A DNA stretch of 36,641 nt from a virus. Taxonomy: Duplodnaviria > Heunggongvirae > Uroviricota > Caudoviricetes. The stretch spans positions 1 to 36,641 of the IMG/VR virus record IMGVR_UViG_2877285697_000003. One strand, given 5' to 3'. Below are positions 1-23,282 of this stretch, in pieces. Below the pieces are notes generated by a model. It ran no database searches, had not been told where the DNA came from, and saw only the letters and a program-made list of their open reading frames with translations. The translations under genes were made by a program, and so were the position numbers. The stretch's first letter is position 1. Every line of letters starts with the position of its first letter.

Positions 1-74
1 TCCGTAACGCCTCTGCCACGCGCGTAACGTGACAGGGATTAAAGGTAAACCAATTGATTTTGCAAGTTTTTATT

Positions 75-1361: not shown

Positions 1362-1427
1362 TAAACCTCCCAGACGTCCAGGAGCATTAACAGGTTAACC
1401 GGAACTTGCATTTTTGGCACCTGGTTG

Positions 1428-2123: not shown

Positions 2124-2195
2124 TGAAGTGGCACACTGAATTTGGCCACCTGAACAGAGGTGATATGCTCACCTCAGAACAACACAGGTGCTCCA

Positions 2196-3364
<1,169 letters not shown>

Positions 3365-3566
3365 CCACTTCACAGTCCTCAATCGCTGGTTCCGTGACGG
3401 AAGGGGGCGTCGTGTTCACGTTATACGCTGGGAGCCTGAAACACAGCGGGTTATTTATCTGCGTGATGGTTATCCATATGAATGTTTCAGCCCGTTGTGG
3501 TTGTTCAGGCGTGATTTTGTGGAGTGTGAAGCGCCGCCGGAATGACGGCACGGTATATACGAAAAA

Positions 3567-3926
3567 TTACGTCGCCTTGCCCAGCGTAAAATCAAAGTGG
3601 ATGTCGTCATACGGGAATGACGTTCCGCGCTCGCTTTTTTCCAGTAAACCGTTGCTGATGAGTGCGGTCACGTCAGTATGCACGCTTTTTACATCACGTC
3701 CAACCAGGGCTGCAATTTTTCGGATGGACATTTCTCCGGCACCAGTCATTGCCATCAGAATGTCCATGCGTTTTGGTGTCAGTACCTTATGCATCATTTG
3801 CCAGTCAGGAAATGAAATAACGTTTTCTCTGGTTGCTTTTGCTCCGGTAGCTGCTTCCTGGAACGCAGACAGCACATCAGCCGTGAAATTATCCATTGAC
3901 TCGATTCGGATTGTTACGGTTCTCAT
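3567..3926 (-). CDS. Winged-helix HTH DNA-binding protein (about 119 aa from internal ATG; ORF track gives 151 aa)
   Basis: Helix-turn-helix-like segment ..EMSIRKIAALVGRDVKSVHTDVTALISNGLLEKSERG..; ATG at 3926 is 1 nt after the stop of the upstream 95-aa ORF (TGAcATG on the minus strand), suggesting a two-gene operon. Confidence 0.55.
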   Translation of the reverse strand: MRTVTIRIESMDNFTADVLSAFQEAATGAKATRENVISFPDWQMMHKVLTPKRMDILMAMTGAGEMSIRKIAALVGRDVKSVHTDVTALISNGLLEKSERGTSFPYDDIHFDFTLGKAT

Positions 3927-3927
3927 G

Positions 3928-4215
3928 TCAGATACCTCTGCGGATGGATTTAACGTCAGCCAGAAAATCAGCGAGCAGTTGTTCAATGGTGACAAAGCTG
4001 GTGCTGACTTCCTGACTACCAATGTGTTTGTGATCGCCTTTACCCCGTTCGTTGTCGTAACGCATCACACACATGCCATCAACGACATAAGCCATGCTGT
4101 ATTTGTAGTTGTGCTGGCTACCCAATACAGCAGGCTCCACTTCCCATATGCGGATTCGTATGTATTCAGATTCACCGAGATGACGGATGAACTGTTTATA
4201 CAGTCTGGATGGCAT
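3928..4215 (-). CDS. Hypothetical 95-aa protein, upstream partner of the HTH gene
   Basis: Complete ORF, stop codon 1 nt before the downstream HTH gene start; no family recognised by eye. Confidence 0.5.
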   Translation of the reverse strand: MPSRLYKQFIRHLGESEYIRIRIWEVEPAVLGSQHNYKYSMAYVVDGMCVMRYDNERGKGDHKHIGSQEVSTSFVTIEQLLADFLADVKSIRRGI

Positions 4216-4383
4216 TTAAAGCTTCCTCTGGTTCTTGTTGTAAACAATAACAACAAGGCTTCGCGTTGTCCACAGCTACAACATTTTGATATTGATTCTG
4301 CAAGTCCGGGACGTTACACTGTTCCGGCACCTTATAAAACGGGTGCCGGGATTTGCACCCCGGAATTGATCAAGGCGATATAC

Positions 4384-4405
4384 GACGCGCCAGCGTCTTT
4401 TTTAT
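4384..4405 (+). terminator. Hairpin plus T-run (GACGCGCCAGCGTC TTTTTTAT) inside the divergent intergenic region
   Basis: GC-rich inverted repeat followed by a 6-T run on the + strand, about 165 bp upstream of the Rha-like gene start; could be an attenuator or small-RNA terminator. Confidence 0.35.
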
Positions 4406-4569
4406 CGTCCACGCTCACGCACGCCAGAATTATGGTGGGCTGGGCAGGGGAGCCGAAAGGCTCGCCGGTTTCCTTGATCGCCGGTAGTGCAAACCCTGTT
4501 CAGTCCGCCACCAGCGAGATTTGCACCTCCGGTGGTGGAAGTATTTCACCGATCAAGGAGGCTGCCATT

Positions 4570-5301
4570 ATGGCTACGATCCCAGTTTCCCCATTCCTCA
4601 AAATCGAAGTCGTCAACGGTAAGGCCGTTACTACATCTCTTTTCGGATATCTCAAACTGTTGCGCCTTGCTGGTGTTCCGGGTTATATTTCTCGCGTTGC
4701 TGTAAATCCAGCAACCGGGCTTCGCATCCCGAAACATCACACAGGGCTGACACGCCATAAGCGTGTTTTTTTGTCTACGTACGTCTATTCAATGGCGGCT
4801 CAGATGGGAGCTTCTTCGGAAGCGCCGGTTTTCCCTTGTGTGTCCGGTAATGCGAATCCTGTCTGGGCTGCCACCAATCATGGTTTCGCATCCGTGGGTG
4901 GTAGCTGTAAAGCACACACACAAGGGGCTGTCACCATGACTACCACCACTACTCACCCATTCCTCAAAATCGAAGTCGTCAACGGCAAGGCCGTTATTTT
5001 CTCTTTGCATGTGGCCTGCTACTTTAAGCGCATGCACCAGAACATCGTCGACAAAATCGAGTATCTGAACTGCTCGCGCGAATTTTTTACCCGCAATTTC
5101 ATACCGGGTACTTACCACATCTATGACGACTCTCTGCGTGGTTATTACATCACCCTTGATGGTCTGATGATGCTTCAGCTTGGGTTAAGTCTGCGCACAA
5201 TGCGGTACTACGAGAGTTGCATTGAAGCGTTCCATGAGGCTGAAACCAGCCTGAATCATACCGCTTTCCGTCGTAATCAATGGGAGGCGCGTCATGTGTA
5301 A
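4570..5301 (+). CDS. Rha-family-like phage regulatory protein (C-terminal half Rha-like; alternative start at 4936)
   Basis: ATG at 4570 preceded by AAGGAGG; residues from 4936 (MTTTTTHPFLKIEVVNGKAVIFSL..YYITLDGLMMLQLGLS..IEAFHEAE) resemble Rha/antirepressor-type N-terminal domains; the motif PFLKIEVVNGKAV is encoded twice by a 39-bp direct repeat. Confidence 0.45.
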   Translation: MATIPVSPFLKIEVVNGKAVTTSLFGYLKLLRLAGVPGYISRVAVNPATGLRIPKHHTGLTRHKRVFLSTYVYSMAAQMGASSEAPVFPCVSGNANPVWAATNHGFASVGGSCKAHTQGAVTMTTTTTHPFLKIEVVNGKAVIFSLHVACYFKRMHQNIVDKIEYLNCSREFFTRNFIPGTYHIYDDSLRGYYITLDGLMMLQLGLSLRTMRYYESCIEAFHEAETSLNHTAFRRNQWEARHV

Positions 5302-5527
5302 TAACCATTATTCAGATACCACTGTCACGGTAATTAAAAACCTGATGGATGCGCTTATTGACATCTCTGTTATTGCAGACAGGGTGCATAAGCACGCCGC
5401 CACTGAAACAGAATATACCGGGGCTCTCGTTCCTCATTCACTGACTGTCATGCAAATTAGCGCCGACCAGGCGCTGGAAACAGCCAGCAAAATGCTCATG
5501 GCTGATGTGCAGGAGGTACGTCCATGA
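5294..5527 (+). CDS. Hypothetical protein (77 aa)
   Basis: ORF whose start overlaps the stop of the upstream gene and whose stop overlaps the next start (ATGA), i.e. translational coupling. Confidence 0.4.
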   Translation: MCNNHYSDTTVTVIKNLMDALIDISVIADRVHKHAATETEYTGALVPHSLTVMQISADQALETASKMLMADVQEVRP

Positions 5528-5748
5528 TTCGCCGCATCGTTAATTCTCTGTATCACCGATACAACCGTTGCCCCCGTGTGGGGCAGTGGTTTGCCACCAG
5601 CAACGGTCACGTTCTGCGGGTTTGCCTGGTCAGCACCGAAAACCAGAAAGTTGTGTGTGAATTACTGGGGCGTAGCTACACCATCAGTTACCCACTGGTG
5701 GTGTTTCAGTCCGGAAAAATGTTTAAACGCCTGGGAGGTGCTGTGTGA
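5524..5748 (+). CDS. Hypothetical protein (74 aa)
   Basis: ATGA overlap with the upstream ORF and GTGA overlap with the downstream ORF. Confidence 0.4.
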   Translation: MIRRIVNSLYHRYNRCPRVGQWFATSNGHVLRVCLVSTENQKVVCELLGRSYTISYPLVVFQSGKMFKRLGGAV

Positions 5749-6044
5749 ACTGTTTTCAGTTTGTGTGCGGAAGTGTTTTCGATAATCCGATTCAGCGCCT
5801 GATTATGTTGCGTGTTTGGATGTCGGGGTCTTCAGACGGGGAAGGTGAGAGAGTTATTGAGCACCAAGTGCTTGCCGATTTTTGTTGCTGTTCAAAACAA
5901 GCGATGTTCAGAGAAACCCTGGCCCTGGAAAGGGCGGGACATCTGCATATCCGAAAAATTGCAACGCTTACCATTGATGCAAAAGCCCGACTCCAGCCTG
6001 CCCGTGGTTACACAATTGTCATGCCGCGTAAGGAGGCTGTATGA
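5745..6044 (+). CDS. Hypothetical protein (99 aa, GTG start)
   Basis: GTG start overlapping the upstream stop; ATGA overlap with the next ORF. Confidence 0.4.
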   Translation: MNCFQFVCGSVFDNPIQRLIMLRVWMSGSSDGEGERVIEHQVLADFCCCSKQAMFRETLALERAGHLHIRKIATLTIDAKARLQPARGYTIVMPRKEAV

Positions 6045-6334
6045 GTCGTTATGCCCCCACACCGGAAGTTATGGCTATTGGTCAAATTAATATTTCCGGC
6101 AATGTCACACCGACAACCTGGTGGAAACATATCCAGCTACCCAGTGGGCGTCCGGATGCGACAGCCATTGCGCTGCTTTCAGAGATTGTTTACTGGTATC
6201 GCCCGACAGAAGTCAGGGATGAGCATACAGGGGCTTTACTGGGATATCGCAAGCGTTTTCAGGGTGACAAGCTGCAAAGAAGCTATCAGGCGTTTGCTGA
6301 GCAGTTTGGCTTTGGGAAAAGGGAAACCGCAGAT
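6041..6334 (+). pseudogene. Hypothetical gene, 3'-truncated by IS600 (stop codon supplied by the IS terminus)
   Basis: ORF runs straight into the IS600 end at 6335 (..GKRETAD then TGA from TGAGGTGTACTGG). Confidence 0.45.
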
Positions 6335-7365
6335 TGAGGTGTACTGGCAATAGCGGACACTACCATTTGTTCTTTTTTTAAGCAGCCATCTGATGGTATT
6401 TTTCCCTGAAGGCTGCCGGGGAGATATTCCCCAGACGAGAGTGACGACGCTGACGATTGTAGAAAATCTCAATGTATTCCCGTATTACTGAGATGGCTTC
6501 ATCCCGGTTATTAAAACGATAGTGGCTCAGGCTCTCATTTTTCAGCGTTCCCCAGAAGCTTTCCATCGGAGCGTTGTCGTAACAGTTACCTTTACGCGAC
6601 ATTGATGTTTTCAGACCAAACTGCTCCTGTATGACCCGGTAATCGTATGCGCAGTACTGTGAACCTCGATCAGAGTGGTGGATTAGCCCGGCAGGTGGGC
6701 GCTGGCTCCTGAGCGCCATAAACAGGGCTTTACCTGTCAGCTCTTTTGTCATGCGCTCTCCCATGGCGTAGCCGACAATTTCGCACGTATAAACATCTTT
6801 GATGCCAGCGAGGTACAACCATCCCTCCTGTGTGGCAACATACGTCAGGTCCGCCACCCAGACCTGATTTGGTGCTGTAGGAGCGAACGTCTGGTTCAGC
6901 AGATTTGGCGCAACTGGCAGATTGTGGTTCGGGTTCGTAGTCGCTCTGAACTTGCGTTTCTGCTTACAGCGTAGCCTTAGCTCCTTACGAAGACGTGCCA
7001 GTCGGTCACGACCAACGATGATGCCATTCTCTGCCAGCTCCGTCTGGAGCCGCCGGGTTCCATATGTTTCGCGAGTGCGGATATGTGCCACCTTAATCTC
7101 CAGTTTTAGCCGCTCATCACTTTGTTTTCTGTCTGAGGGTTCATGCTGTACCCAGTTGTAATAACCGCTCCTGGATACACCAAATACCTGACACATCGCT
7201 TCAATGGGAAATTGTTGTCGCCATTGTTCGATTAACGCGTATTTTTCAGCGACTCCTGTGCAAAATACGCTGTTGCTTTTTTTAATATATCTCGCTCAAG
7301 GCGAGCTTCATTTAACGCCTTACGCAGTTGCAGAATTTCAGATTCCAGTTCAGCCACCGTGCGGG
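6335..7365 (-). mobile_element. IS600 copy, 5'-truncated (about 1031 of 1264 bp; lacks IRL and first ~57 codons of orfA)
   Basis: Right terminus TGAGGTGTACTGGCAATAGCGG at 6335; identity to the complete copy (16287-17550) ends near 7365 inside orfA, where molR-like sequence begins. Confidence 0.85.
6378..7196 (-). CDS. IS600 orfB transposase (272 aa)
   Basis: Nearly identical to orfB of the complete IS600 at 16689-17507 (two substitutions); IS3-family catalytic core. Confidence 0.9.
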   Translation of the reverse strand: MCQVFGVSRSGYYNWVQHEPSDRKQSDERLKLEIKVAHIRTRETYGTRRLQTELAENGIIVGRDRLARLRKELRLRCKQKRKFRATTNPNHNLPVAPNLLNQTFAPTAPNQVWVADLTYVATQEGWLYLAGIKDVYTCEIVGYAMGERMTKELTGKALFMALRSQRPPAGLIHHSDRGSQYCAYDYRVIQEQFGLKTSMSRKGNCYDNAPMESFWGTLKNESLSHYRFNNRDEAISVIREYIEIFYNRQRRHSRLGNISPAAFREKYHQMAA

Positions 7366-8893
7366 AACGTGATCTGGCTCGCCAGTGGATTTTACAATGG
7401 CCGGAACATACGGCTAGTGCACTTATCCCTCTTGTCTTTACCAAACCCAGCGATAATAGCGAAGCCGCATTACTTGCCCTGCGTTTACTGTACGAACAGG
7501 GACATGGCGAATTGCTACAAACCGTGGCAAACCGCTGGCAGCGTACAGATGTATGGTCTGCCCTGGAGCAGTTGCTTAAACAGGGTCCAATGGACATTTA
7601 CCCGGCACGCATTCCAAAAGCCCCTGATTTCTGGCATCCGGCAATGTGGTCCAGGCCTTGACTTATCACTAATAATCAGCCTGTTACCGGTGACGCTCTG
7701 GAAATTATCGGCGAAATGCTGCGCTTTACCCAGGGGGGACGTTTTTATAGCGGGCTGGAACAACTGAAAACGTTCTGCCAGCCACAAACGCTGGCAGCTT
7801 TTGCCTGGGATCTCTTCACTGCGTGGCAACAAGCTGGTGCCCCCGCAAAAGACAACTGGGCATTTCTGGCGTTAAGTCTCTTTGGTGACGAAAGCACGGC
7901 ACGGGATCTGACGACACAGATCCTCGCCTGGCCACAAGAAGGCAAATCTGCCCGTGCTGTCAGCGGCCTGAACATCCTTACCCTGATGAATAATGATATG
8001 GCGCTGATACAGCTGCATCATATATCGCAACGGGCTAAATCCCGCCCCTTACGTGATAACGCGGCGGAATTTCTTCAGGTGGTCGCAGAAAATCGCGGGC
8101 TAAGCCAGGAAGAGCTAGCGGACAGATTAGTCCCAACCCTGGGCCTTGATGATCCGCAGGCGTTGAGTTTTGATTTTGGTCCCCGGCAGTTTACCGTTCG
8201 CTTCGATGAAAACCTCAACCCGGTTATCTTTGATCAGCAAAACGTTCGCCAGAAAAGCGTTCCCCGGTTGCGCGCCGATGACGATCAACTGAAAGCGCCC
8301 GAGGCACTGGCCCGACTAAAAGGGCTAAAAAAAGATGCTACTCAGGTGAGCAAAAACCTGCTCCCGCGTCTTGAAGCTGCCCTAGGTACCACCCGACGCT
8401 GGTCGCTGGCAGATTTTCATTCTCTGTTTGTTAATCATCCCTTTACCCGTCTGGTTACCCAGCGATTAATATGGGGGGGTTATCCGGCAAATGAACCGCG
8501 TTGTTTACTCAAAGCCTTTCGTGTGGCCGCAGAGGGGGAGTTCTGCAATGCGCAAGATGAGCCAATTGACCTGCCTGCGGACGCTCTGATTGGCATTGCC
8601 TACCCGTTAGAAATGACAGTAGAAATGCGCAGTGAATTTGCACAGCTTTTTGCCGATTACGAAATTATGCCGCCTTTTCGCCAGTTGTCGCGCCGCACGG
8701 TGCTGCTCACACCTGACGAGTCAACCAGTAACAGCCTGACTCGCTGGGAAGGTAAATCCGCTACCGTTGGGCAGCTTATGGGAATGCGATACAAAGGCTG
8801 GGAGTCAGGTTATGAGGACGCATTTGTCTATGACCTGGGTGAGTACCGGCTGGTCCTTAAGTTTTCACCCGGTTTTAACCACTACAATGTTGA
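7366..8893 (+). pseudogene. molR: molR/yehI-family (DUF4132-type) gene fragment: 5' part deleted at IS600, in-frame stop at 7659-7661, 3' end interrupted by IS1
   Basis: Two same-frame ORFs (7359-7661 and 7716-8915) separated by one stop codon; translation recalled as the large WGR/DUF4132 protein encoded next to metG in E. coli; the final codons MLPTY-stop come from the IS1 terminus. Confidence 0.6.
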
Positions 8894-9659
8894 GGTAATG
8901 CTGCCAACTTACTGATTTAGTGTATGATGGTGATTTTAAGGTGCTTGCGTGGCTTCCATTTCCATCAGATGTCCTTCCTGCTCCGCTACTGAAGGCGTGG
9001 TGCGTAACGGCAAAAGCACTGCCGGACATCAGCGCTATCTCTGCTCTCATTGCCAAAACATGGCAACTACAGTTCACTTACACCGCCTCTCAGCCCGGTA
9101 CGCACCAGAAAATCATTGATATGGCCATGAATGGCGTCGGATGTCGCGCCAGTGCACGCATTATGGGCGTTGGCCTCAACACGGTTTTACGTCACTTAAA
9201 AAACTCAGGCCGCAGTCGGTAACCTCGCGCATACAACCGGGCAGTGATGTGATTGTCTGCGCTGAAATGGACGAACAGTGGGGCTACGTCGGTGCTAAAT
9301 CACGTCAGCGCTGGCTGTTTTACGCGTATGACAGGATACGGAGGACGGTTGTGGCGCACGTCTTCGGTGAACGCACTCTGGCCACACTGGAGCGTCTTCT
9401 GAGCCTGCTGTCGGCCTTTGAGGTCGTGGTATGGATGACGGATGGCTGGCCGCTGTATGAATCACGCCTGAAGGGAAAGCTGCACGTTATCAGCAAGCGT
9501 TACACTCAGCGCATTGAGCGACATAATCTGAATCTGAGACAACATCTGGCAAGGCTGGGACGGAAGTCACTGTCGTTCTCAAAATCGGTGGAGCTGCATG
9601 ACAAGGTCATCGGGCATTATCTGAACATAAAACACTATCAGTAAGTTGGAGTCATTACC
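8894..9659 (+). mobile_element. IS1, full length but with a 2-bp deletion that frameshifts insA
   Basis: Ends GGTAATGCTGCCAACTTACTGAT.. and ..ATCAGTAAGTTGGAGTCATTACC; insA region TCTCATTGCC--AAAACATGG differs from canonical TCTCACTGCCGTAAAACATGG, so the InsA frame is broken; insB is intact. Confidence 0.9.
9141..9644 (+). CDS. insB: IS1 InsB
   Basis: 167-aa translation recognised as IS1 InsB (..[54 protein letters not shown]..). Confidence 0.9.
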
Positions 9660-9818
9660 TGAATAATCAACAGGTGCTTCTGGGTTACAGCTGGCTTGAC
9701 GATAAACTTGAGCTCTACCTCCTTAGCATCGGTCCACATGAAAATTTTTATACCGATCAGAAAAAACACCGAAAAGCTGATTTAAAACTCATCGGTTAGT
9801 CCTGACGTCATGCATACC

Positions 9819-9846
9819 AGCCCACGTAAACGCGTGGGCTTTTTCA
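9819..9846 (+). terminator. Rho-independent terminator-like hairpin (AGCCCACG taaa CGTGGGCT TTTT)
   Basis: Perfect 8-bp stem, 4-nt loop, followed by a T-run, about 150 bp upstream of the KilA-N gene. Confidence 0.5.
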
Positions 9847-9997
9847 TATCTGAATTTCACCGCGCACCGCAGCGCATGATAACCACCGAACCTGCCCCTT
9901 TGGAATGAGCCTTTGAGGATACCAGTTAGTGCTGGCGAGCCTCGGTGGGCTGGTTTCCTGTGCGGCAAAGGTTCATTTCAAAGAACAGGTATACGAC

Positions 9998-10495
9998 ATG
10001 AAATCATTAACCCTCTTCAATCAGCCAATCCGTATCGGTGAAGATGGCATGATCTGCCTCACTGATATGTGGAAAGCCAGTGGTAAAAGTGAATCTGAAT
10101 CTCCGTACCACTACCTGCGAAACAAGCAGACCAAAGAGTTCTTAGCCGAGCTGGAGAAAAACCACGAATCTGTGGTTTTTACTGAGCGCGGTGTACACGG
10201 TGAAACATATGGCGGGAAGTTTGTTGCTTATGATTATGCAGCATGGCTAAACCCCGGATTTAAATATGCAGCCTATAAAGTCCTGGATGACTACTTCACC
10301 GGAGAACTTCAGCATCGCAACAGCTTAAGTGCGCAGCTCAATATGAAGTGTCATGAGTTTGATCAGAAAAAAGATATGGCGAGCTTCTGTGGACAAGGGC
10401 TGGCGGCATGGCGCTATACGAAGCCAGTGTTGGTCGCTGAGATTAACTCCCTGGCTAACCAGCTGCAGATAACGATCCCCGGGCTTCCGGGATGA
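9998..10495 (+). CDS. KilA-N domain protein (phage antirepressor-like DNA-binding protein)
   Basis: Start chosen at ATG 9998 with upstream AGG; translation (..ICLTDMWKASGK.. GGKFVAYDYAAWLNPGFKYAAYKVLDDYF..) matches the KilA-N domain pattern. Confidence 0.7.
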   Translation: MKSLTLFNQPIRIGEDGMICLTDMWKASGKSESESPYHYLRNKQTKEFLAELEKNHESVVFTERGVHGETYGGKFVAYDYAAWLNPGFKYAAYKVLDDYFTGELQHRNSLSAQLNMKCHEFDQKKDMASFCGQGLAAWRYTKPVLVAEINSLANQLQITIPGLPG

Positions 10496-10749
10496 GTGAT
10501 CGTGTCATTGAATGCGCCTCCAGAGCGGGGCGCGACTTCTCAGAGTTCATGAAAGGCGAGAAGGGCATGATGGAAGCATTGGCCTCGGTGGATGAGTTTG
10601 GCGAGCAGCTGCGCCTCAACGGCTGTGTCAATCATCACTTTGTTAGCTACATGATGCGGAACTCGATCATGCAGGCATTCATGGACATGGCAAAAGCCGA
10701 GAGGAAAGAAGAGCGCCGGCGTAAGCGAGCGGAAGCAAAAGCGAAGTAG
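10492..10749 (+). CDS. Hypothetical 85-aa protein with basic C-terminal tail, translationally coupled to the KilA-N gene
   Basis: ATGA start/stop overlap with the upstream gene; C-terminus KAERKEERRRKRAEAKAK. Confidence 0.45.
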   Translation: MSDRVIECASRAGRDFSEFMKGEKGMMEALASVDEFGEQLRLNGCVNHHFVSYMMRNSIMQAFMDMAKAERKEERRRKRAEAKAK

Positions 10750-11164
10750 CCATTACAAAGCCCATCTACTGGTGGGCTTGATAATGGCTTATACCCTACA
10801 CGGGATAACTTAACTGATATCCCTTTTAACGGATAAAGGTATTCAAGCCTGACACATCATGCGCTGTATCGTCGCTGTATTCCCGCATTAACCATGACCG
10901 TAGCCCGACGGGGAACTCCTTCTGCGCGAGTGTGCGGGAATAATCAAAAACGATGCACACCGGGTTTTTACCGCGTTTATGGTTCGCGGGTTTGTCCCTC
11001 ATGCTCGCCAGTCCTGTGCGGGGGTGGAAGAAACAGGACACTTACACTGATTCTTGTGGGTACGATGCTATTCCTTTCTGGATTATCCCGATGTCATTCA
11101 TGCAGGGCGCTGTATCAGACGTTCGTCATGGCTGTCAGGCTGACGGGTCCTCCCGGTGGGGTGG

Positions 11165-11192
11165 CCTGCCACGGGGCGGGAGCGGCGCGGAA
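11165..11192. other. Candidate cos site (cosN-like GC-rich element) upstream of terS
   Basis: ACGGGGCGGGAGCGGCGCGG resembles the phage lambda cosN neighbourhood as recalled (ACGGGGCGGCGACCTCGCGGG), lies about 170-190 bp upstream of the terS start as in lambda, and is followed by a TTCGTCAT motif and a palindrome ACTGTAAT-N8-ATTACAGT (11234-11257). Confidence 0.4.
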
Positions 11193-11360
11193 AAAGGCTA
11201 GTTTTTGAAATTTCATTCGTCATCACCACTACTGTAATGTGTTGATATTACAGTGGTTTTATTTTTGTGGTGTCGATTTTGATTGTTTTTTTGTTCATCA
11301 CTAACACCGTTTGCCTAAAGTTGTTCGCAAGATGCATGTTTAAAACATTCTGGAGCGGGT

Positions 11361-11854
11361 ATGGATCGAGAGTTAAAAAATCTGACGCTGAATATCAGTC
11401 AACTGGCGGCACTGTCAGGTGTACATCGCCAGACTGCTGCGGCAAGGCTGCAAAATCTACCCGTTGCAGGGGGCATGAAAGCAACCTCAAGCTTTATCGG
11501 GTGGTTGATATTGTGTCGGCATTTCTGGCATTACCACCGCCGGTTGCAGAAGGCGAAATGGACGCGCATGAGCGCAAAGCCTGGTATCAGTCTGAACGTG
11601 AGCGTCTTAAGTTCGAACAGGAAACGGCACAACTCATTCCGGCCAGTGATGTCAGACGGGAGTTTGCCATCTGGGCAAAAGCGGTCGTGCAGGTGCTGGA
11701 GACATTACCGGATATTCTTGAACGTGACTGCGGTCTGCAGCCTGCCGCTGTGAGCCGTATTCAGTCCATTATTGATGATCTGCGCGATCAGATAGCCCTG
11801 CGGGTGACTGAAGCAGGTGCGGATGATGAGGAGGAATTACAGCAGGAGGAGTAA
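11361..11854 (+). pseudogene. Terminase small subunit (Nu1-like), frameshifted within a G-run near 11469-11477
   Basis: N-terminal HTH part (MDRELKNLTLNISQLAALSGVHRQTAAARLQNLPVAGG) is in one frame (ORF 11361-11753) and the remainder (HESNLKLYRVVDIV.. to stop at 11854) in another (ORF 11267-11854); junction at GCAGGGGGCATG. Confidence 0.7.
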
Positions 11855-13956
11855 TGCTGAATCAGGAAACCGCAAAGGCAGCACGAACCGATTCAGGTTA
11901 TATCCTTCGCGCACCAAGACGAATGCGGGTTGCTGATGCCGTTGCTCAGTATATGCGGGTGCCCATGGGGGCAGGGAACTCAGTCCCGTGGGATCCGCTG
12001 GTGGCACCGTATGTTATTGAGCCGATGAACTGCCTGGCCTCGCGTGAATACGACGCAGTGATATTTGTTGGCCCGGCACGAACCGGCAAGACTATCGGCC
12101 TGATTGACGGCTGGGTGATTTACAACGTGATTTGCGATCCTGCTGATATGCTGATCATTCAGATGACGGAGGAAAAAGCCCGCGAACACTCCAAAAAACG
12201 ACTCGCCAGAACGTTTCGCGTCAGCCCGGAAGTGGTCAGTCGCCTGAGTCCGAACAAAAATGACAACAACGTTTATGACAGAACATTCCTTGCTGGCAAC
12301 TACCTGAAAATCGGCTGGCCGTCAGTCAATATCATGTCCTCATCAGATTATAAATGCGTCGCGCTGACGGATTATGACCGTTTTCCGGAAGATATTGATG
12401 GTGAGGGGGATGCTTTCTCTCTTGCCTCAAAACGTACCACAACATTTATGTCCAGTGGTATGACGCTGGTGGAGAGTTCCCCCGGCAGGGATGTGAAGGA
12501 TGTGAAATGGCGACGGACTTCACCGCATGAGGCTCCACCAACCACGGGGATACTGTCGCTCTATAACCGTGGCGATCGCCGTCGCTGGTACTGGCCCTGT
12601 CCACACTGTGGTGAGTATTTTCAGCCCTGCGGCGATGTGGTTGCTGGTTTCCGTGATATTGCCGATCCCGTGCTGGCAAGTGAGGCGGCTTATATTCAGT
12701 GTCCTTCCTGTTCAGGACGGATTATGCCTGAACAAAAACGTGAGCTGAACGGACGTGGGGTCTGGTTGCGGGATGGTGAATCCATCAATGCGGATGGCAG
12801 TCGTTATGGTGATCCCAGGCGTTCACGTATTGCGTCATTCTGGATGGAGGGTCCGGCAGCTGCTTACCAGACACTCTCGCAACTCGTTTACAAACTGCTT
12901 ACTGCAGAACAGGAATACGAGACAACCGGAAGTGAAGAAACACTCAGGGCGGTTATCAACACCGACTGGGGATTACCTTATCTTCCCCGCGCCAGCATGG
13001 AGCAACGAAAAAGTGAACTGCTTGAGCAGCGGGCAGAGCCTGTTCCTCCCCGCTGCGTGCCGGATGGTGTTAATTTCCTGGCGGCGACAGTGGATGTGCA
13101 GGCGGGACGTCATCGCCGTTTTGTGGTTCAGGTAACGGGTTATGGTTGCCGTGGCGAACGCTGGATTATTGATCGTTACAACATCACGCAGTCATTGCGT
13201 TGTGACAACAACGGAGAAAGCCTGCGAATTGATCCTGCTGGTTATCCTGAGGACTGGGATGTCCTGCTGACGGATGTTTTTCATAAAAGCTGGCCGTTGG
13301 CCTCCGATCCTTCTCAACAAATGCGACTGATGGCAATGGCGGTGGACTCCGGCGGTGAAGACGGGGTCACTGATAATGCCTATAAATTCTGGCGTCGTTG
13401 CCGTCGTGATGGCCTTGGTAAACGTATTTACCTGTTTAAGGGCGACAGCATCCGACGCGCAAAACTGATCACCCGTACATTCCCTGATAACACCGGACGA
13501 ACGGGCCGACGGGCGCAGGCCGCAGGTGATGTGCCGCTCTGGCTTCTTCAGACGGATGCCCTGAAAGACCGGGTGAATAACGCGTTATGGCGTGACTCGC
13601 CAGGTCCCGGCTATGTGCATTTCCCTGACTGGCTGGGGAGCTGGTTTTACGACGAACTGACGTATGAAGAGCGGAGCAGTGACGGGAAATGGAGTAAGCC
13701 GGGTCGAGGTGCCAACGAAGCTTTTGACCTGATGGTGTATGCCGAGGCTCTGGTCATTCTGCATGGTTACGAGAAAATTCAGTGGCCGGATGCGCCGGAA
13801 TGGGCATGCAGGGAAACCTGGCTGGAGCGTGTCAGGGACGATGCCGGACTGTCAGCCTCGCCGGAGCCGATATCCGTGTCCGTTAAAAAAAAGAAACGAA
13901 AAAAAGTGGTGCCTGATGAAGAAAACCCATGGGTGACTTCCGGAGGATGGTTGTGA
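11854..13956 (+). CDS. Terminase large subunit (lambda gpA family), 700 aa
   Basis: ATG overlaps the terS stop (TAATG); translation has the gpA-family ATPase region (..VIFVGPARTGKT..) and length typical of lambda-type TerL. Confidence 0.9.
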   Translation: MLNQETAKAARTDSGYILRAPRRMRVADAVAQYMRVPMGAGNSVPWDPLVAPYVIEPMNCLASREYDAVIFVGPARTGKTIGLIDGWVIYNVICDPADMLIIQMTEEKAREHSKKRLARTFRVSPEVVSRLSPNKNDNNVYDRTFLAGNYLKIGWPSVNIMSSSDYKCVALTDYDRFPEDIDGEGDAFSLASKRTTTFMSSGMTLVESSPGRDVKDVKWRRTSPHEAPPTTGILSLYNRGDRRRWYWPCPHCGEYFQPCGDVVAGFRDIADPVLASEAAYIQCPSCSGRIMPEQKRELNGRGVWLRDGESINADGSRYGDPRRSRIASFWMEGPAAAYQTLSQLVYKLLTAEQEYETTGSEETLRAVINTDWGLPYLPRASMEQRKSELLEQRAEPVPPRCVPDGVNFLAATVDVQAGRHRRFVVQVTGYGCRGERWIIDRYNITQSLRCDNNGESLRIDPAGYPEDWDVLLTDVFHKSWPLASDPSQQMRLMAMAVDSGGEDGVTDNAYKFWRRCRRDGLGKRIYLFKGDSIRRAKLITRTFPDNTGRTGRRAQAAGDVPLWLLQTDALKDRVNNALWRDSPGPGYVHFPDWLGSWFYDELTYEERSSDGKWSKPGRGANEAFDLMVYAEALVILHGYEKIQWPDAPEWACRETWLERVRDDAGLSASPEPISVSVKKKKRKKVVPDEENPWVTSGGWL

Positions 13957-14165
13957 ACCAGAATGATATTGAAGCCATGATCCATCGTTATATCAATGCG
14001 GAAATGGCAGTGCTGGACGGAAAGTCCATTACTTTTAATGGTCAGCAGATGACCATGGAAAACTTATCCGAGATCCGACAGGGGCGGCAGGAGTGGGAAC
14101 GTCGCCTTGCGACTCTGGCTGCGCGGCGACGGGGGAAGCCGGGCTATAAACTGGCGAGGTTCTGA
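13953..14165 (+). CDS. Head-tail joining protein, gpW-like
   Basis: Small ORF between terL and portal, position as in lambda; GTG at 13953 preceded by GGAGG; stop overlaps the portal ATG (TGATG). Confidence 0.6.
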   Translation: MNQNDIEAMIHRYINAEMAVLDGKSITFNGQQMTMENLSEIRQGRQEWERRLATLAARRRGKPGYKLARF

Positions 14166-15670
14166 TGGCAATTCTTGATGATGTTATTGGTGTTTTTTCA
14201 CCTGGCTGGAAAGCTGCGAGATTGCGCTCAAGGGCATTAATTCGTGCCTATGAGGCAGTGAAGCCTACTCGTACACATAAAGCCCGGCGGGAAAATCGTT
14301 CTGCCGACCAGCTCAGTAAGTACGGTGCAGTTTCCCTGCGGGAGCAGGCTCGTTTTCTGGACATCAATCATGATCTGGTAATCGGTGTTTTCGACAAACT
14401 TGAGGAACGGGTGATTGGTGCAAAAGGGATCGTTGTCGAACCCCAGCCATTACTGAAGAACGGTGATATAGCCACAGAGCTGGCAATGATTCTCCGTCGC
14501 TTGTGGGTGGAATGGTCTGTCAGTCCGGATGTGACCGGGCAGTATACGCGCCCCATGCTCGAGCGTCTGCTGCTGCGTACCTGGTTACGTGATGGTGAAG
14601 TGTTTGCCCAGCTGGTTCGTGGTGCCGGCGGCGGGCTGGTGCGGACTGCTGGCGTGCCTTTCTGGATCGAGGCAATGGAGCCGGATTTTGTGCCCATGCT
14701 CAGTGATGAATCTGTGGGGTTGAATCAGGGTGTTTTTCTGGATGACTGGGGCAGACCGAAAAAATACCTGGTTTATAAAAATCATCCGACTACCGGGCGG
14801 CTGAGTGATACCAAAGAGATCGTTGCCGAAAATATGGTGCATCTGAAATTTACCCGTCGTCTGCATCAGACGCGTGGTACATCCATGTTGTCAGGTGTGC
14901 TGATGCGGATCAGTGCGCTTAAGGAATATGAAGATGCTGAGCTGACAGCGGCGCGTGTTGCTGCGGCTCTGGGGCTGTATATCCGTAAAGGAGATGGGCA
15001 GGATTATGAAGACGCCACGATAAATAAAGATAATGACCGGGAACTGCATATCACCCCTGGCATTATTTATGACGATTTGCGCAAGGGGGAAGATATTGGC
15101 ATGGTCAAATCTGATCGGCCCAATCCTAACCTTGAAACTTTTCGTAACGGGCAGCTGCGTGCGGTGGCCGCAGGCAGTCGTATGAGTTTTTCCAGTGCGG
15201 CGCGCAATTACAACGGTACCTACAGCGCTCAGCGACAGGAGCTGGTCGAGTCCACTGACGGCTATCTGATCCTGCAGGACTGCTTTATTGGCGCTGTAAC
15301 CCGTCCCGTGTACCGGACGTGGCTGAACATGGTGGTAGCAGCAGGTCTGCTGAAAATCCCGTCGGATGTGGATATGAAAACGTTGTGTAACGCAACATAT
15401 TCCGGTCCGGTCATGCCGTGGATTGATCCGGTTAAGGAGGCTGAGGCCTGGAAAATCCAGATTCGCGGTGGAGCGGCGACAGAATCAGACTGGGTGCGAG
15501 CAGGTGGGCGTAATCCGGATGATGTCAAACGTCGGCGCAAGGCTGAAATTGATGAAAACCGCAAGCTGGGTCTGATATTTGATACCGATCCGGCCAGTAA
15601 TAAAGGAGGCAGCAGTGTCGCAACGAAACGACTGGAGCCGCAGCACACCGACGGCCAGTCCGAAGAATAA
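14165..15670 (+). CDS. Portal protein (lambda gpB family), 501 aa
   Basis: Position after terL and gpW, size and sequence consistent with lambda-family portal proteins. Confidence 0.85.
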   Translation: MAILDDVIGVFSPGWKAARLRSRALIRAYEAVKPTRTHKARRENRSADQLSKYGAVSLREQARFLDINHDLVIGVFDKLEERVIGAKGIVVEPQPLLKNGDIATELAMILRRLWVEWSVSPDVTGQYTRPMLERLLLRTWLRDGEVFAQLVRGAGGGLVRTAGVPFWIEAMEPDFVPMLSDESVGLNQGVFLDDWGRPKKYLVYKNHPTTGRLSDTKEIVAENMVHLKFTRRLHQTRGTSMLSGVLMRISALKEYEDAELTAARVAAALGLYIRKGDGQDYEDATINKDNDRELHITPGIIYDDLRKGEDIGMVKSDRPNPNLETFRNGQLRAVAAGSRMSFSSAARNYNGTYSAQRQELVESTDGYLILQDCFIGAVTRPVYRTWLNMVVAAGLLKIPSDVDMKTLCNATYSGPVMPWIDPVKEAEAWKIQIRGGAATESDWVRAGGRNPDDVKRRRKAEIDENRKLGLIFDTDPASNKGGSSVATKRLEPQHTDGQSEE

Positions 15671-15683
15671 TTCCTGGTTCAGG

Positions 15684-16289
15684 ATGCAGGCAGGTCACCA
15701 GAGTGACGCGGATATTTATATTTATGACGAGATTGGTTTCTGGGGTGTTACGGCGAAGCAGTTTATCAGTGATCTGAATGCACTGGGCGATATCACCCAC
15801 ATTAATCTCCATATCAATTCACCGGGTGGCGATGTCTTTGAAGGCATCGCCATTTTTAATGCACTGAAAACACATGGTGCGTCCATTACCGTTTATGTCG
15901 ACGGTGTGGCGGCATCAATGGCGTCGGTCATTGCGATGGTGGGAAACCCGGTCATTATGCCGGAAAACACCTTCATGATGATTCATAAACCATTTGGCTT
16001 TACGGGCGGTGATGCGGAGGACATGCGCACCTATGCCGACCTGCTCGATAAAGTTGAGGCGGTTCTGTTACCCGCTTATGCACAGAAAACCGGGAAAACC
16101 ATCGATGAAGTTGCTGCCATGCTGGCGGATGAGACCTGGATGTCCGGTGCCGAATGTCTGGCACATGGATTTGCTGATCAGGTGACGCCAGCCGTTAAGG
16201 CAATGGCATGTATTCAGTCAAAACGTACAGAGGAATTTAAAAAGATGCCGGAATCCATTCGAAACATGATTACTCCGCCACGCAACTGA
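15684..16289 (+). CDS. ClpP/S14-family prohead protease; stop codon provided by the IS600 terminus
   Basis: Translation (..HINSPGGDVFEGIAIFNALK.. SMASVIAMVG.. MIHKP..) has ClpP-like Ser/His motifs; start set at ATG 15684 just after the portal stop (ORF track start 15579 overlaps portal); TGA at 16287-16289 is the first 3 nt of the IS600 IRL. Confidence 0.8.
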   Translation: MQAGHQSDADIYIYDEIGFWGVTAKQFISDLNALGDITHINLHINSPGGDVFEGIAIFNALKTHGASITVYVDGVAASMASVIAMVGNPVIMPENTFMMIHKPFGFTGGDAEDMRTYADLLDKVEAVLLPAYAQKTGKTIDEVAAMLADETWMSGAECLAHGFADQVTPAVKAMACIQSKRTEEFKKMPESIRNMITPPRN

Positions 16290-16350
16290 GGTAGCCTGAG
16301 TTTAACGGACACTCCTTCCTGAAATAGAATGGCATCAGAAGGAGCTAATA

Positions 16351-16653
16351 ATGAGCAGAAAAACCCAACGTTACTCTAAAGAGTTCAAAGCCGAAGCTGT
16401 CAGAACGGTTCTTGAAAATCAACTTTCGATCAGTGAAGGCGCTTCCCGATTATCCCTTCCTGAAGGCACTTTAGGACAATGGGTTACCGCCGCCAGAAAA
16501 GGGCTCGGTACTCCTGGCTCCCGCACGGTGGCTGAACTGGAATCTGAAATTCTGCAACTGCGTAAGGCGTTAAATGAAGCTCGCCTTGAGCGAGATATAT
16601 TAAAAAAAGCAACAGCGTATTTTGCACAGGAGTCGCTGAAAAATACGCGTTAA
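16351..16653 (+). CDS. IS600 OrfA
   Basis: 100-aa ORF MSRKTQRYSKEFKAEAVRTV.. with HTH and leucine-zipper-like C-terminus, as in IS3-family OrfA proteins. Confidence 0.9.
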   Translation: MSRKTQRYSKEFKAEAVRTVLENQLSISEGASRLSLPEGTLGQWVTAARKGLGTPGSRTVAELESEILQLRKALNEARLERDILKKATAYFAQESLKNTR

Positions 16654-16688
16654 TCGAACAATGGCGACAACAATTTCCCATTGAAGCG

Positions 16689-17507
16689 ATGTGTCAGGTA
16701 TTTGGTGTATCCAGGAGCGGTTATTACAACTGGGTACAGCATGAACCCTCAGACAGAAAACAAAGTGATGAGCGGCTAAAACTGGAGATTAAGGTGGCAC
16801 ATATCCGCACTCGCGAAACATATGGAACCCGGCGGCTCCAGACGGAGCTGGCAGAGAATGGCATCATCGTTGGTCGTGACCGACTGGCACGTCTTCGTAA
16901 GGAGCTAAGGCTACGCTGTAAGCAGAAACGCAAGTTCAGAGCGACTACGAACCCGAACCACAATCTGCCAGTTGCGCCAAATCTGCTGAACCAGACGTTC
17001 GCTCCTACAGCACCAAATCAGGTCTGGGTGGCGGACCTGACGTATGTTGCCACACAGGAGGGATGGTTGTACCTCGCTGGCATCAAAGATGTTTATACGT
17101 GCGAAATTGTCGGCTACGCCATGGGAGAGCGCATGACAAAAGAGCTGACAGGTAAAGCCCTGTTTATGGCGCTCAGGAGCCAGCGCCCACCTGCCGGGCT
17201 AATCCACCACTCTGATCGAGGTTCACAGTACTGCGCATACGATTACCGGGTCATACAGGAGCAGTCTGGTCTGAAAACATCAATGTCGCGTAAAGGTAAC
17301 TGTTACGGCAACGCTCCGATGGAAAGCTTCTGGGGAACGCTGAAAAATGAGAGCCTGAGCCACTATCGTTTTAATAACCGGGATGAAGCCATCTCAGTAA
17401 TACGGGAATACATTGAGATTTTCTACAATCGTCAGCGTCGTCACTCTCGTCTGGGGAATATCTCCCCGGCAGCCTTCAGGGAAAAATATCATCAGATGGC
17501 TGCTTAA
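16689..17507 (+). CDS. IS600 OrfB transposase
   Basis: 272-aa ORF; differs from the copy at 6378-7196 by two substitutions (F->S and D->G in ..VIQEQSGLKTSMSRKGNCYGNAPME..). Confidence 0.9.
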   Translation: MCQVFGVSRSGYYNWVQHEPSDRKQSDERLKLEIKVAHIRTRETYGTRRLQTELAENGIIVGRDRLARLRKELRLRCKQKRKFRATTNPNHNLPVAPNLLNQTFAPTAPNQVWVADLTYVATQEGWLYLAGIKDVYTCEIVGYAMGERMTKELTGKALFMALRSQRPPAGLIHHSDRGSQYCAYDYRVIQEQSGLKTSMSRKGNCYGNAPMESFWGTLKNESLSHYRFNNRDEAISVIREYIEIFYNRQRRHSRLGNISPAAFREKYHQMAA

Positions 17508-19939: not shown

Positions 19940-20070
19940 AGTAGGCATTACTTCTTAATAGTGAAAAGGGGTTAGATAGTACCAAATGGGAAAATGTTAA
20001 GTAAGTACTTCTCTATATTCTTCAGGTAAACTATCAGCTGATGGTTTATCTATACAAAAAAGGAGTCGGG

Positions 20071-21756: not shown

Positions 21757-22925
<1,169 letters not shown>

Positions 22926-23282
22926 TGGAGCACCTGTGTTGTTCTGAGGTGAGCATATCACCTCTGTTCAGGTGGCCAAATTCAGTGTGCCACTTCACCT
23001 CCGCAAATAACGGATGGCGTAGTTTTACACTGAGAAATGAAAGGGATTTGAAAAGAAAAAAACGCAAAAGCGGGCGAAACGATATATACAGTAAGGAAAG
23101 CACTCTATCCAACAAACCACCCACAGTTAATCGGAATAAAAGCAGAGTGCTTATGAATGATCGCACGCCCGAAGGTTAGTATTTCTGCACAGCAATTTTG
23201 CAAAAAAAGGCGATCATTCATAACTTAAACGTCTTTCAGTCACTCCGGGATTTCCCATCATCGCAGACTGAAAGACTCTGAC

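Follow-up and report, generated by a model that had tools for sequence, protein, structure and literature searches.

An intact KilA-N gene pair in an IS-truncated prophage remnant, very probably a stranded copy of a lambdoid accessory cassette

Introduction

The closest described counterparts of the locus analyzed here are the genes hkbK (HK620p38, KilA-N) and hkbL (HK620p39, hypothetical) of phage HK620, which were reportedly already annotated in the 2001 genome paper of that phage. HK620 is an intact P22-like podovirus with a headful terminase and with S, R and Rz upstream of the pair; its two genes overlap by an ATGA, are followed by a 3' hairpin, and occupy the place after Rz and before the terminase. 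In the case of HK97 (HK97p60 and HK97p61) and the equivalent genes of HK022, the same slot reads Rz, KilA-N gene, small gene and HNH/terminase. The KilA-N protein of these two phages is a KilA-N-P63C variant, encoded 3' of the lysis genes and 5' of the terminase, and the two genes lie 2 nt apart. A further occupant of the slot is the Rha-ORF11CD3 gene of the Ec-U11 prophage, which carries a Phage_pRha N-terminus instead of KilA-N and has no small gene after it.

The most distant characterized relative is KilA of phage P1, a protein of about 266 aa that differs in its C-terminal part and is encoded in the lytic replicon operon with repL, outside the late lysis-packaging slot. Expression of P1 KilA is reportedly lethal to the host, and the protein is not known to have a small partner gene. 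BstA, another protein with a KilA-N-like domain, is about 300 aa long; its gene adjoins the repressor locus and is accompanied by an anti-BstA DNA element. The KilA-N-like region of BstA (residues 32-147), which was found by remote-homology methods only, is followed by a conserved C-terminal domain of a distinct kind, and BstA demonstrates that domains of the KilA-N-like type can take part in abortive infection (Owen et al. 2021, PMC8585504). At the level of domain families, KilA-N and ORF11CD3 belong to a domain-swapping 'Bro network' together with ANT, AntA, P22_AR and Rha, whose members regulate in phages and satellites (PMC10111431).

The DNA analyzed here is the whole 36,641-nt stretch of IMG/VR record IMGVR_UViG_2877285697_000003 (the 36.6-kb window), in which a KilA-N gene and a small overlapping gene stand ahead of a packaging module. 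Very probably, this locus represents a dispensable accessory cassette of two genes that is widespread in lambdoid phages, the HK620 hkbK/hkbL type, which occupies a variable slot between the lysis and packaging genes and would act as a late-expressed, non-structural DNA-binding or regulatory accessory; here it is stranded in a prophage stump and is no substitute for lysis genes.

A prophage stump between two insertion sequences

The phage DNA in the 36.6-kb window is a 6.6-kb remnant (9660-16286) that lies between an IS1 element and an IS600-like element. The features of the remnant and its borders are as follows, with the supporting evidence in brackets.

8894..9659, + strand: IS1 element, left boundary, with insA at 8949-9119 and insB' at 9141-9644 (Pfam Zn_ribbon_InsA, DDE_Tnp_IS1)
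9660..9799, + strand: truncated toxin gene of the RelE/ParE family, of which the 3' end with residues 64-109 of 109 is left (tblastn, PHROG RelE-like toxin)
9819..9846, + strand: intrinsic terminator with a 9-bp G+C-rich stem, a 4-nt loop and TTTTT (terminator scan, fold)
9847..9997, + strand: conserved leader 5' of the KilA-N gene (spacer alignment)
9998..10495, + strand: KilA-N + ORF11CD3 gene, 165 aa (Pfam, PHROG, homology to HK620 hkbK)
10492..10749, + strand: gene of an 85-aa helical protein, HK620 hkbL homologue (phrog_875, E 3.2e-54; tblastn; AlphaFold)
10750..10787, no strand assigned: stable stem-loop directly 3' of the small-gene stop codon (fold, alignment)
10786..10840, + strand: conserved junction motif of ~55 bp, containing TACCCTACACGGGATAACTTAA (alignment)
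11361..11854, + strand: small terminase gene, DUF1441 family, pseudogene (alignment with FDAARGOS_943)
11854..13956, + strand: lambda gpA-type large terminase gene, 700 aa, intact (Pfam GpA_ATPase, GpA_nuclease)
16287..17507, + strand: IS3-family element (IS600-like), right boundary (Pfam HTH_Tnp_1, rve)

The IS1 element has the terminal inverted repeats GGTAATGCTGCC... and ...GGAGTCATTACC, read directly from the DNA, and interrupts a DUF4132 gene on its left and the parE toxin gene on its right; its end at 9659 lies 340 nt upstream of the KilA-N gene. The nearest relative of the stump is FDAARGOS_943, whose homology starts at 9659/9660, ends at 16286, and is contiguous at 99.7% identity over 9659-16286. 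The parE remnant is 100% identical to residues 64-109 of the ParE protein of this relative (tblastn), which upstream keeps a lysozyme gene, Rz and an intact parDE, giving the original order lysozyme-Rz-parDE-pair. Missing from the stump are the parD antitoxin gene and everything further upstream (Rz, lysozyme, Q). At the opposite border, the IS600-like element begins with TGAGGTAGCCTGAGTTTAACGG at 16287 and cuts a ClpP-protease/capsid fusion gene. IS1 took out Q and pR' together with the lysis genes and a portion of parE, and IS600 the remaining head and tail genes. Within the stump, the small terminase gene is frameshifted because a G-run near 11470 has lost 1 nt (G6 to G5); tblastn recovers its residues 1-38 and 38-164 in two frames, and the Pfam DUF1441 match begins at profile position 29.

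The initial annotation had noticed that lysis genes are lacking and had placed the KilA-N gene and its neighbor 'in place of lysis genes' ahead of the packaging module. The first half of this statement is borne out, as a tblastn search with three references each for holin, endolysin and Rz found no homologue anywhere in the 36.6-kb window. The second half fails: the window holds no lysis genes because IS1 (8894-9659) truncated the prophage upstream of the KilA-N gene, and elsewhere an Rz homologue stands upstream of the pair in 66 of 67 viral contigs with sufficient upstream sequence. The apparently missing lysis genes are thus an artefact of the IS1 deletion and do not represent a new late-operon design. 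The copy in the window sits in an IS-shredded, non-functional prophage stump of a kind typical of Shigella-like genomes.

The slot of the pair in intact phages

In intact HK620 and Stx2-1717, the gene order runs from holin, endolysin and Rz through the pair to the terminase. The locus survey was made in IMG/VR, since a collection with one genome per species gave 7 loci; in those IMG/VR viral contigs that have at least 2.2 kb upstream, the Rz homologue that precedes the pair is separated from it by a typical gap of about 205 nt. On the 3' side, at least four unrelated packaging modules follow the pair, namely gpA/DUF1441, P22-like, HNH+TerS (1717) and HNH (HK022). In the stump, the packaging genes terS/terL at 11361-13956 follow the pair and IS1 has destroyed the upstream side, so that the window differs from HK620 both in its deleted upstream part and in its lambda gpA-type module downstream. 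Distant KilA-N-ORF11CD3 genes (47-56% aa identity), found in Erwinia phage phiEt88 and a Cronobacter prophage, likewise have lysis genes on one side and Terminase_2/Terminase_6C genes on the other. The small ORFs 3' of these distant genes (phiEt88-like, Cronobacter) were considered as homologues of the 85-aa protein and were rejected after inspection of their translations.

The slot itself is variable among close relatives. Beside a terminase module that is ~97% identical, nothing occupies it in phage vB_EcoS-569R4 or in the VTB97448v strain's prophage, and it is filled by the Rha-ORF11CD3 gene in Ec-U11; the pair is therefore dispensable for packaging. Among complete E. coli genomes, about 10% carry the pair. 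Homologous intact phages with the pair in the same position and in a defined structural role had been named beforehand as evidence against an insertion; the position was found in such phages, and a defined structural role was not.

The KilA-N and ORF11CD3 protein

Profile searches confirm the KilA-N domain proposed for the ORF at 9998-10495. Pfam KilA-N (PF04383) matches the 165-aa protein with an E-value of 2.1e-14 and a score of 53.7 bits, well above the cut-off of 23.8, and the alignment spans positions 8-106 of the 107 in the profile. The C-terminal part is formed by ORF11CD3 (PF10549) at residues 109-161, with an E-value of 2.4e-13 and 50.5 bits against a cut-off of 25. This second domain was absent from the initial annotation. 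In PHROG, the protein matches phrog_129, a 'transcriptional regulator' family (E 1.7e-59), and gives weak matches to 'anti-repressor' families (E 5.5e-4 and 2.4e-3). At the level of individual phages, it shares 95.8% aa identity with HK620 hkbK, whereas the HK97/HK022 protein is only about 23% identical in its KilA-N domain and ends in P63C rather than ORF11CD3; P1 KilA has the KilA-N domain in common with it, at 28% identity over residues 11-127.

The AlphaFold model of the 165-aa protein (pLDDT 82.7) consists of an N-terminal β-hairpin with helices, followed by a long antiparallel helical hairpin at the C-terminus. The N-terminal part of the model is KilA-N-like, and the ORF11CD3 helical hairpin is probably an oligomerization module. 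Structure searches returned no informative match for either product of the pair, a PDB sequence search gave nothing meaningful for the 165-aa or the 85-aa protein, and none of the five local ORFs matches an NCBIfam family. With respect to other domains, Pfam reports KilA-N and ORF11CD3 alone in the 165-aa protein, and none of ANT, AntA or P22_AR. Neither protein of the pair has a Pfam or PHROG match to holin, endolysin or Rz families, and no membrane-spanning segment or muralytic domain is predicted in either.

PADLOC returned a partial match of the 165-aa protein to the candidate PDC-S22 (residues 15-56, E 1.6e-7) and a chance-level match to QatB, both of which were rejected as evidence of a defense system. 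Beyond the fragment in the KilA-N region, the protein matches neither the BstA model nor any other PADLOC system, and it is set apart from BstA by its length of 165 aa and its ORF11CD3 C-terminus.

The small basic-tailed protein and its linkage to KilA-N genes

The ATG of the 85-aa ORF overlaps the TGA of the KilA-N gene by 4 nt (ATGA, read directly), an overlap that 134 other loci share; this arrangement indicates that the small gene is translationally coupled to the KilA-N gene, as had been proposed. The Lys/Arg-rich tail described for the product is likewise present, with ~10 of the last 18 residues being K or R. Over residues 1-66 the protein is 100% identical in HK620 and Stx phages (tblastn, with the low-complexity tail masked by the filter). 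Identity to HK97p61 is 96% over residues 1-54, and identity to the HK022 gene product is about 85% over residues 1-66; the two genes overlap in the window, whereas those of HK97 and HK022 are spaced apart. C8, C45 and N47 are invariant, and H48 and H49 are nearly so.

The 85-aa protein is an ORFan limited to Enterobacterales, with 21 representatives at 50% identity among 1.84 billion proteins, and an exhaustive profile search recovered the same narrow family with no tie to a larger one. AlphaFold predicts three helices with confidence (pLDDT 92.5). Foldseek against the PDB returned generic or designed helical bundles for this protein, with no match at E<=0.001.

The small gene was found with an intact KilA-N gene immediately 5' of it in 226 of the 235 loci surveyed, and in the other nine the upstream KilA-N gene is truncated, frameshifted or represented by a P63C remnant. 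Across all 235 loci, it always lies 3' of a KilA-N gene or its remnant, whether the C-terminal domain of the latter is ORF11CD3 or P63C, which is a modest new point. Identical small proteins are found beside two KilA-N partners that share only about 23-25% identity in the KilA-N domain. A specific co-evolving complex of both products was considered, and is weakened by this pairing of identical small proteins with two very different partners.

Hairpins, leader and junction around the pair

Terminator-like hairpins had been described on both sides of the pair. The upstream one, at 9819-9840 with its T-run, is a canonical intrinsic terminator (dG -16.1 kcal/mol, z -4.6), and the aligned Rz-to-KilA-N spacers of Stx2-1717, HK620, HK022 and Ec-U11 place an equivalent terminator after Rz in phages without parDE. 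The downstream hairpin is real, but it starts and ends some 10 nt before the 10768-10790 first given for it, lacks a U-tract on the + strand, and is not called by the terminator scan on either strand. As a stem-loop at 10750-10787 it is nonetheless very stable (dG -22.1 kcal/mol, z -5.8); it is kept in the alignment of HK620, HK022 and Stx2-1717, and 124 of 223 loci have its core 8 nt past the small-gene stop.

Between the upstream terminator and the KilA-N start codon lies the conserved leader, which the Rha-ORF11CD3 variant shares up to about 9935; the Ec-U11 gene thus has the slot, the upstream terminator, the leader and the ORF11CD3 kind of C-terminus in common with the window. A crude consensus scan, which weak or non-sigma-70 sites could escape, found no sigma-70 consensus promoter on the + strand in 9600-11900, including 9847-9997. 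Lying behind a terminator and with no recognizable promoter, the pair in the stump is intact but would probably be silent. The hairpins and the leader match no known RNA element, an Rfam scan of 9600-11400 at E<=1 having returned no family.

Downstream of the stem-loop, the junction motif TACCCTACACGGGATAACTTAA has one exact match in the window, with 0 expected by chance, and occurs in 95 of 223 loci. It is found at a variable distance 3' of the small gene (most commonly 42, about 238 or 344 nt past its end) in phages with differing packaging modules, and is probably a module-boundary sequence.

Proposed function and alternatives

In an intact phage, the cassette would belong to the late operon, 3' of Rz and behind a terminator, and its position suggests late transcription by Q-antiterminated read-through from pR'. 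The products of the pair are most likely a non-structural DNA-binding or regulatory accessory, as judged from their domain content and 'Bro network' membership, and they could target the host, prophages or satellites in the same cell, or the late program of the phage itself. This 'regulatory/DNA-binding' assignment is one of domain annotation only, because no functional experiment or publication was found for hkbK/hkbL-type genes; the literature search covered hkbK/hkbL, HK97p60/p61 and ORF11CD3 proteins.

An antirepressor or derepressor module is possible but unlikely; in it, the late KilA-N protein, alone or together with the small one, would induce or block other prophages or PICI satellites of the same cell by binding to their repressors or operators. 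Such a role would be in keeping with the network that KilA-N and ORF11CD3 share with ANT, AntA, P22_AR and Rha (PMC10111431), with the weak PHROG 'anti-repressor' matches, and with the Rha-ORF11CD3 gene that the same slot and leader hold in other phages. Set against this are the absence of the ANT, AntA and P22_AR domains themselves and the fact that neither an experimental precedent for the subfamily nor a repressor or operator target was identified. Of the label 'antirepressor-like' in the initial annotation, there remains a loose family resemblance within the 'Bro network'.

Improbable, in our judgment, is a prophage-expressed 'moron', that is, an autonomous promoter-gene-terminator unit that would aid the lysogen by superinfection exclusion, by BstA-like abortive infection, or as a kill protein with a small antidote. 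The moron-type insertion suggested earlier is correct in so far as the pair is an accessory unit, present or absent between otherwise near-identical late regions, and stable hairpins do stand on both sides of it. The consensus scan, however, found no sigma-70-type promoter of its own in the stretch from the upstream terminator to the start codon, while the downstream hairpin has no U-tract and the place inside the late operon, right after Rz, fits late expression. The parDE toxin-antitoxin module that adjoins the pair in the nearest relatives and the weak, partial PDC-S22 match would agree with a role in the lysogen, but PADLOC finds no BstA or other system past the KilA-N-region fragment, and BstA differs from the 165-aa protein in size and position. 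The precedent of a KilA-N-like domain in abortive infection (PMC8585504) also speaks for this reading.

A packaging aid that would bind DNA at cos or pac as an accessory factor, comparable to the adjacent HNH endonuclease gp74 of HK97, is very improbable. The pair does lie directly 5' of the packaging genes and of a conserved non-coding region that should contain cos, and its products bring a nucleic-acid-binding domain in one case and a basic tail in the other; the role was rejected on the grounds that the terminase systems behind the pair are of at least four unrelated kinds, headful P22-like and cos-type ones among them, and that phages with a ~97% identical terminase module do without it. 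A functional replacement of the lysis cassette, or a novel lysis or kill module, as the lack of lysis genes in the window and the reported lethality of the distant relative P1 KilA might suggest, is to be dismissed almost entirely, given the complete holin-endolysin-Rz set beside the pair in essentially every intact relative, the IS1 truncation with a parE remnant at the junction that explains the missing genes, and the want of any predicted membrane-spanning segment or muralytic domain in either protein.

The late accessory cassette thus remains the preferred reading, and as a well-populated and already known element of HK620 and Stx phages it matters little as a finding in the window. As a tentative extension of it, the 85-aa protein may be an obligate functional partner of KilA-N proteins, either as antidote or modulator of a host-killing KilA-type protein or as the second subunit of a late inter-phage competition, anti-defense or satellite-control system; if true, this would open a first way into the function of the KilA-N/Bro network of lambdoid phages, which is poorly understood. 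The residual value of the locus resides in the strict linkage of an ORFan to KilA-N genes and in the slot exchange of KilA-N or Rha N-termini on a shared leader with the same kind of ORF11CD3 C-terminus, and both the linkage and the modular exchange could guide work on KilA-N/Bro-network proteins in the late phase. In the domain order of the two kinds of slot gene, ORF11CD3 stands C-terminal to the Rha domain in the Ec-U11 slot gene and C-terminal to KilA-N in the 165-aa protein.

Structure of the KilA-N gene pair

The locus consists of two overlapping genes on the plus strand, flanked by hairpins on both sides:

9819-9840 and T-run: canonical intrinsic terminator upstream of the pair (terminator scan; dG -16.1 kcal/mol, z -4.6)
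9998-10495, plus strand: KilA-N and ORF11CD3 gene, 165 aa, ATG start (Pfam)
10492-10749, plus strand: small gene, 85 aa (phrog_875)
10750-10787: stem-loop downstream of the pair, more stable than the upstream hairpin (dG -22.1 kcal/mol, z -5.8)

The 165-aa protein matches the Pfam KilA-N domain with an E-value of 2.1e-14 (53.7 bits against a cut-off of 23.8), and an ORF11CD3 match (E 2.4e-13) covers its C-terminal third. The ATG of the small gene overlaps the TGA of the KilA-N gene (ATGA), and its product, with a Lys/Arg-rich stretch of 18 residues at its C-terminus (KAERKEERRRKRAEAKAK), is spanned end to end by phrog_875, a PHROG family of unknown function (E 3.2e-54), with no family found in Pfam or NCBIfam. 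The initial annotation, which described a KilA-N protein, an 85-aa protein with a Lys/Arg-rich tail and flanking hairpins, was essentially correct in these respects. Both hairpins are real and stable, but the downstream one lies about 10 nt to the left of where it had been placed, lacks a U-tract and receives no call from the terminator scan. The leader contains a weakly folding inverted repeat at 9862-9876 (GCGC-ACCGCA-GCGC; z -1.4), whose equivalent in Stx2 phage 1717 reads GCGT-ACCGCA-ACGC, with both arms changed and pairing kept; this element may act as an operator or form a small RNA stem.

The family of the 85-aa protein is tiny and confined to Enterobacterales: a word-index search returned 138 clusters at 90% identity, with identities to the query of 64% or more for all 120 listed, and only 21 proteins emerged from a profile search run exhaustively over 1.84 billion representatives. 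Residues C8, C45, N47, H48 and H49, which lie in the motifs ECASRAGRDFSEF and GCVNHHFV, are among those that are invariant or nearly so; a metal site formed by them is speculative. AlphaFold confidently predicts three helices (residues 3-20, 26-42 and 48-84; pLDDT 92.5), and a structure search with this model yielded no informative neighbour.

Genomic context in related phages

The locus belongs to the hkbK/hkbL cassette type of phage HK620, as well as to the KilA-N and ORF11CD3 families, with 95.8% identity to hkbK and 100% to hkbL over residues 1-66, the low-complexity tail being masked by the filter. The gene order is S, R, Rz, hkbK, hkbL, hkbM, hkbN, terminase in HK620 and holin, endolysin, Rz, KilA-N, small gene, HNH, TerS in Stx2 phage 1717, while in HK97 and HK022 the small gene follows a KilA-N-P63C gene, likewise between Rz and the HNH/terminase region. 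Erwinia phage phiEt88 and a Cronobacter prophage carry KilA-N-ORF11CD3 genes of 47-56% protein identity in the same slot, before Terminase_2/Terminase_6C genes. The pair is present in 525 of 5426 complete E. coli genomes (about one in ten), and the HK620 arrangement was annotated in its genome paper (Clark et al. 2001, as cited in PMC2629481). The arrangement is common, and our literature search found no functional study of hkbK/hkbL-type genes.

Occupancy of the slot varies among related phages. With a terminase module about 97% identical, it is essentially empty in the isolated phage vB_EcoS-569R4 and in the prophage of strain VTB97448v, where Rz is followed only by a 47-50-aa ORF, and in Ec-U11 it holds a Rha-ORF11CD3 gene without the small gene; the pair is thus dispensable. 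By alignment, the Rha and KilA-N variants have the upstream terminator and leader in common until the coding sequence begins. Some homologues combine a near-identical ORF11CD3 domain with a very different KilA-N domain, or vice versa, an exchange that corresponds to the domain swapping of the 'Bro network', in which KilA-N, Bro-N, Rha, ANT, P63C-like and ORF11CD3 modules take part (PMC10111431).

Linkage of the small gene to KilA-N genes

Three IMG/VR scans and one genome scan provided 235 small-gene loci, at all of which, remnants included, the small gene travels with a KilA-N gene. An intact KilA-N gene lies immediately upstream at 226 of them (137 KilA-N-ORF11CD3 and 89 KilA-N-P63C, one N-terminally short), most commonly joined by the 4-nt ATGA overlap (134 loci) or a 2-nt gap (87 loci); in the nine exceptions the KilA-N gene is truncated or frameshifted, or just the final codons of a P63C gene remain. 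An identical small protein occurs behind either partner type, whose KilA-N domains are only about 23-25% identical to each other, which argues for a functional linkage and against a finely co-evolved protein interface. This strict linkage of a KilA-N gene to a small ORFan is the sole, mildly new point, and it supports the hypothesis of a two-component late accessory system.

In six Klebsiella-type IMG/VR loci (L155, L157, L158, L160, L161 and L164), only the last KilA-N-P63C codons precede the small gene, which does not follow Rz but has tail genes as neighbours (an Ig-like tail protein and ORFs resembling a tail assembly chaperone); here a fragment of the cassette has been relocated within the phage. 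Separately, a small, unrelated ORF whose product ends in a basic C-terminus (MTKTEYNRIDASLEYL...) comes after distant KilA-N-ORF11CD3 genes (about 50% identity) at locus L094 (4395-4511) and in phiEt88 (L093, about 1195-1370), once more overlapping them by ATGA; the phiEt88 version lacks a start codon. This suggests a recurring layout of a KilA-N gene plus a small coupled ORF with non-homologous partners.

Region between the pair and the small terminase gene

The roughly 600 bp from the cassette to terS (10750-11360) are conserved, look non-coding and accompany both gpA-type and 1717-type packaging modules. The region includes:

10786-10840: motif of about 55 bp, GGCTTATACCCTACACGGGATAACTTAA.TGATATCCCTTTTAACGGATAAA
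10826-11002, minus strand: 58-aa ORF, RefSeq hypothetical
11228-11265: A+T-rich 13-bp hairpin, then TTTATTTTT; about 100 nt before terS, terminator-like in the scan

As this region probably contains cos, the 58-aa ORF, which has no PHROG, Pfam or PADLOC match, may be spurious. The hairpin could be a terminator or part of the cos/terminase-binding region. The motif, also found in HK620 (L004, about 3540-3600) and HK022 (L003), recurs 3' of the small gene at varying distance (42, about 238 or 344 nt; 95 of 223 loci) in phages whose packaging modules differ. It has the look of a module-boundary sequence or recombination linker, or possibly of a regulatory site.

Candidate functions

In intact phages, the pair would be transcribed within the Q-dependent late transcript, reading through the terminator after Rz or parE, and its products would be non-structural, with nucleic acid or regulators as their targets. 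A role as an antirepressor-like factor that induces or blocks other elements overlaps with this regulatory-accessory reading and is unlikely; the locus, for which the initial annotation had suggested an antirepressor-like character, lies outside the ANT/AntA/P22_AR families. Somewhat less probable is a prophage-expressed defence or exclusion moron modelled on BstA (PMC8585504), a family to which the locus does not belong. The proposed moron character agrees with variable presence among related phages, but a promoter scan detected no sigma-70 promoter in the leader, and the terminator evidence is ambiguous. A packaging helper is very improbable; at least four unrelated packaging modules lie downstream of the pair (gpA/DUF1441, P22-like, 1717-type HNH plus TerS, and HK022-type HNH). 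A lysis substitute is scarcely credible: the locus belongs to no lysis family, and of 80 IMG/VR contigs encoding the identical small protein, 67 extend at least 2.2 kb upstream of the pair, and in 66 of these an Rz homologue precedes it, usually about 205 nt from the KilA-N gene (parDE intervenes in four).

The IS-bounded prophage remnant

The prophage fragment carrying the pair is truncated by insertion sequences at both ends:

8894-9659: IS1 element (insA and insB domains, terminal repeats read)
9660-9799: last 46 codons of a RelE/ParE toxin gene
11361-11854: small-terminase gene (DUF1441 family)
from 16287: IS600-like element, cutting the prohead-protease/capsid gene

IS1, into whose left end ORF 7716-8915 extends, separates a DUF4132 (molR/yehI-like) chromosomal gene fragment from the parE remnant, which is 100% identical to residues 64-109 of ParE in E. 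coli FDAARGOS_943 and has no parD beside it. The stretch 9659-16286 matches FDAARGOS_943 contiguously at 99.7%, and there the pair is preceded, in this order, by Q, tRNAs, IS600, lysozyme, Rz-type lysis protein, IS600, parD and parE. The ancestor of the fragment therefore carried lysis genes, which the IS1 event removed, and the earlier view that the pair stands in place of lysis genes is wrong; tblastn with nine references, three each of holin, endolysin and Rz, found no homologue in the 36.6-kb window. This copy is probably silent, having lost Q, pR' and all that lay upstream and standing behind a terminator. Compared with FDAARGOS_943, terS has lost 1 nt of a G-run (G6 to G5) near 11470 and is split between two frames; the packaging module is therefore not only truncated but also defective.

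On either side of the remnant (1-9000 and 16287-36641), IS copies are interspersed with chromosomal genes and with dispersed fragments of at least one lambdoid prophage, a pattern typical of Shigella-like genome decay:

75-1361: integrase, prophage piece
2160-3364 and 21757-22961: another IS3-family element, two copies
3358-5301: Ash/Rha protein, prophage piece
6378-7597 and 16287-17507: IS600-like elements
17906-19948: metG, chromosomal
20041-21180: Mrp/ApbC-type ATPase gene, chromosomal
23793-24209: Q, prophage piece
24715-26106: DnaB, prophage piece
26708-27949: IS4-family element
27994-30588: tail J protein, prophage piece
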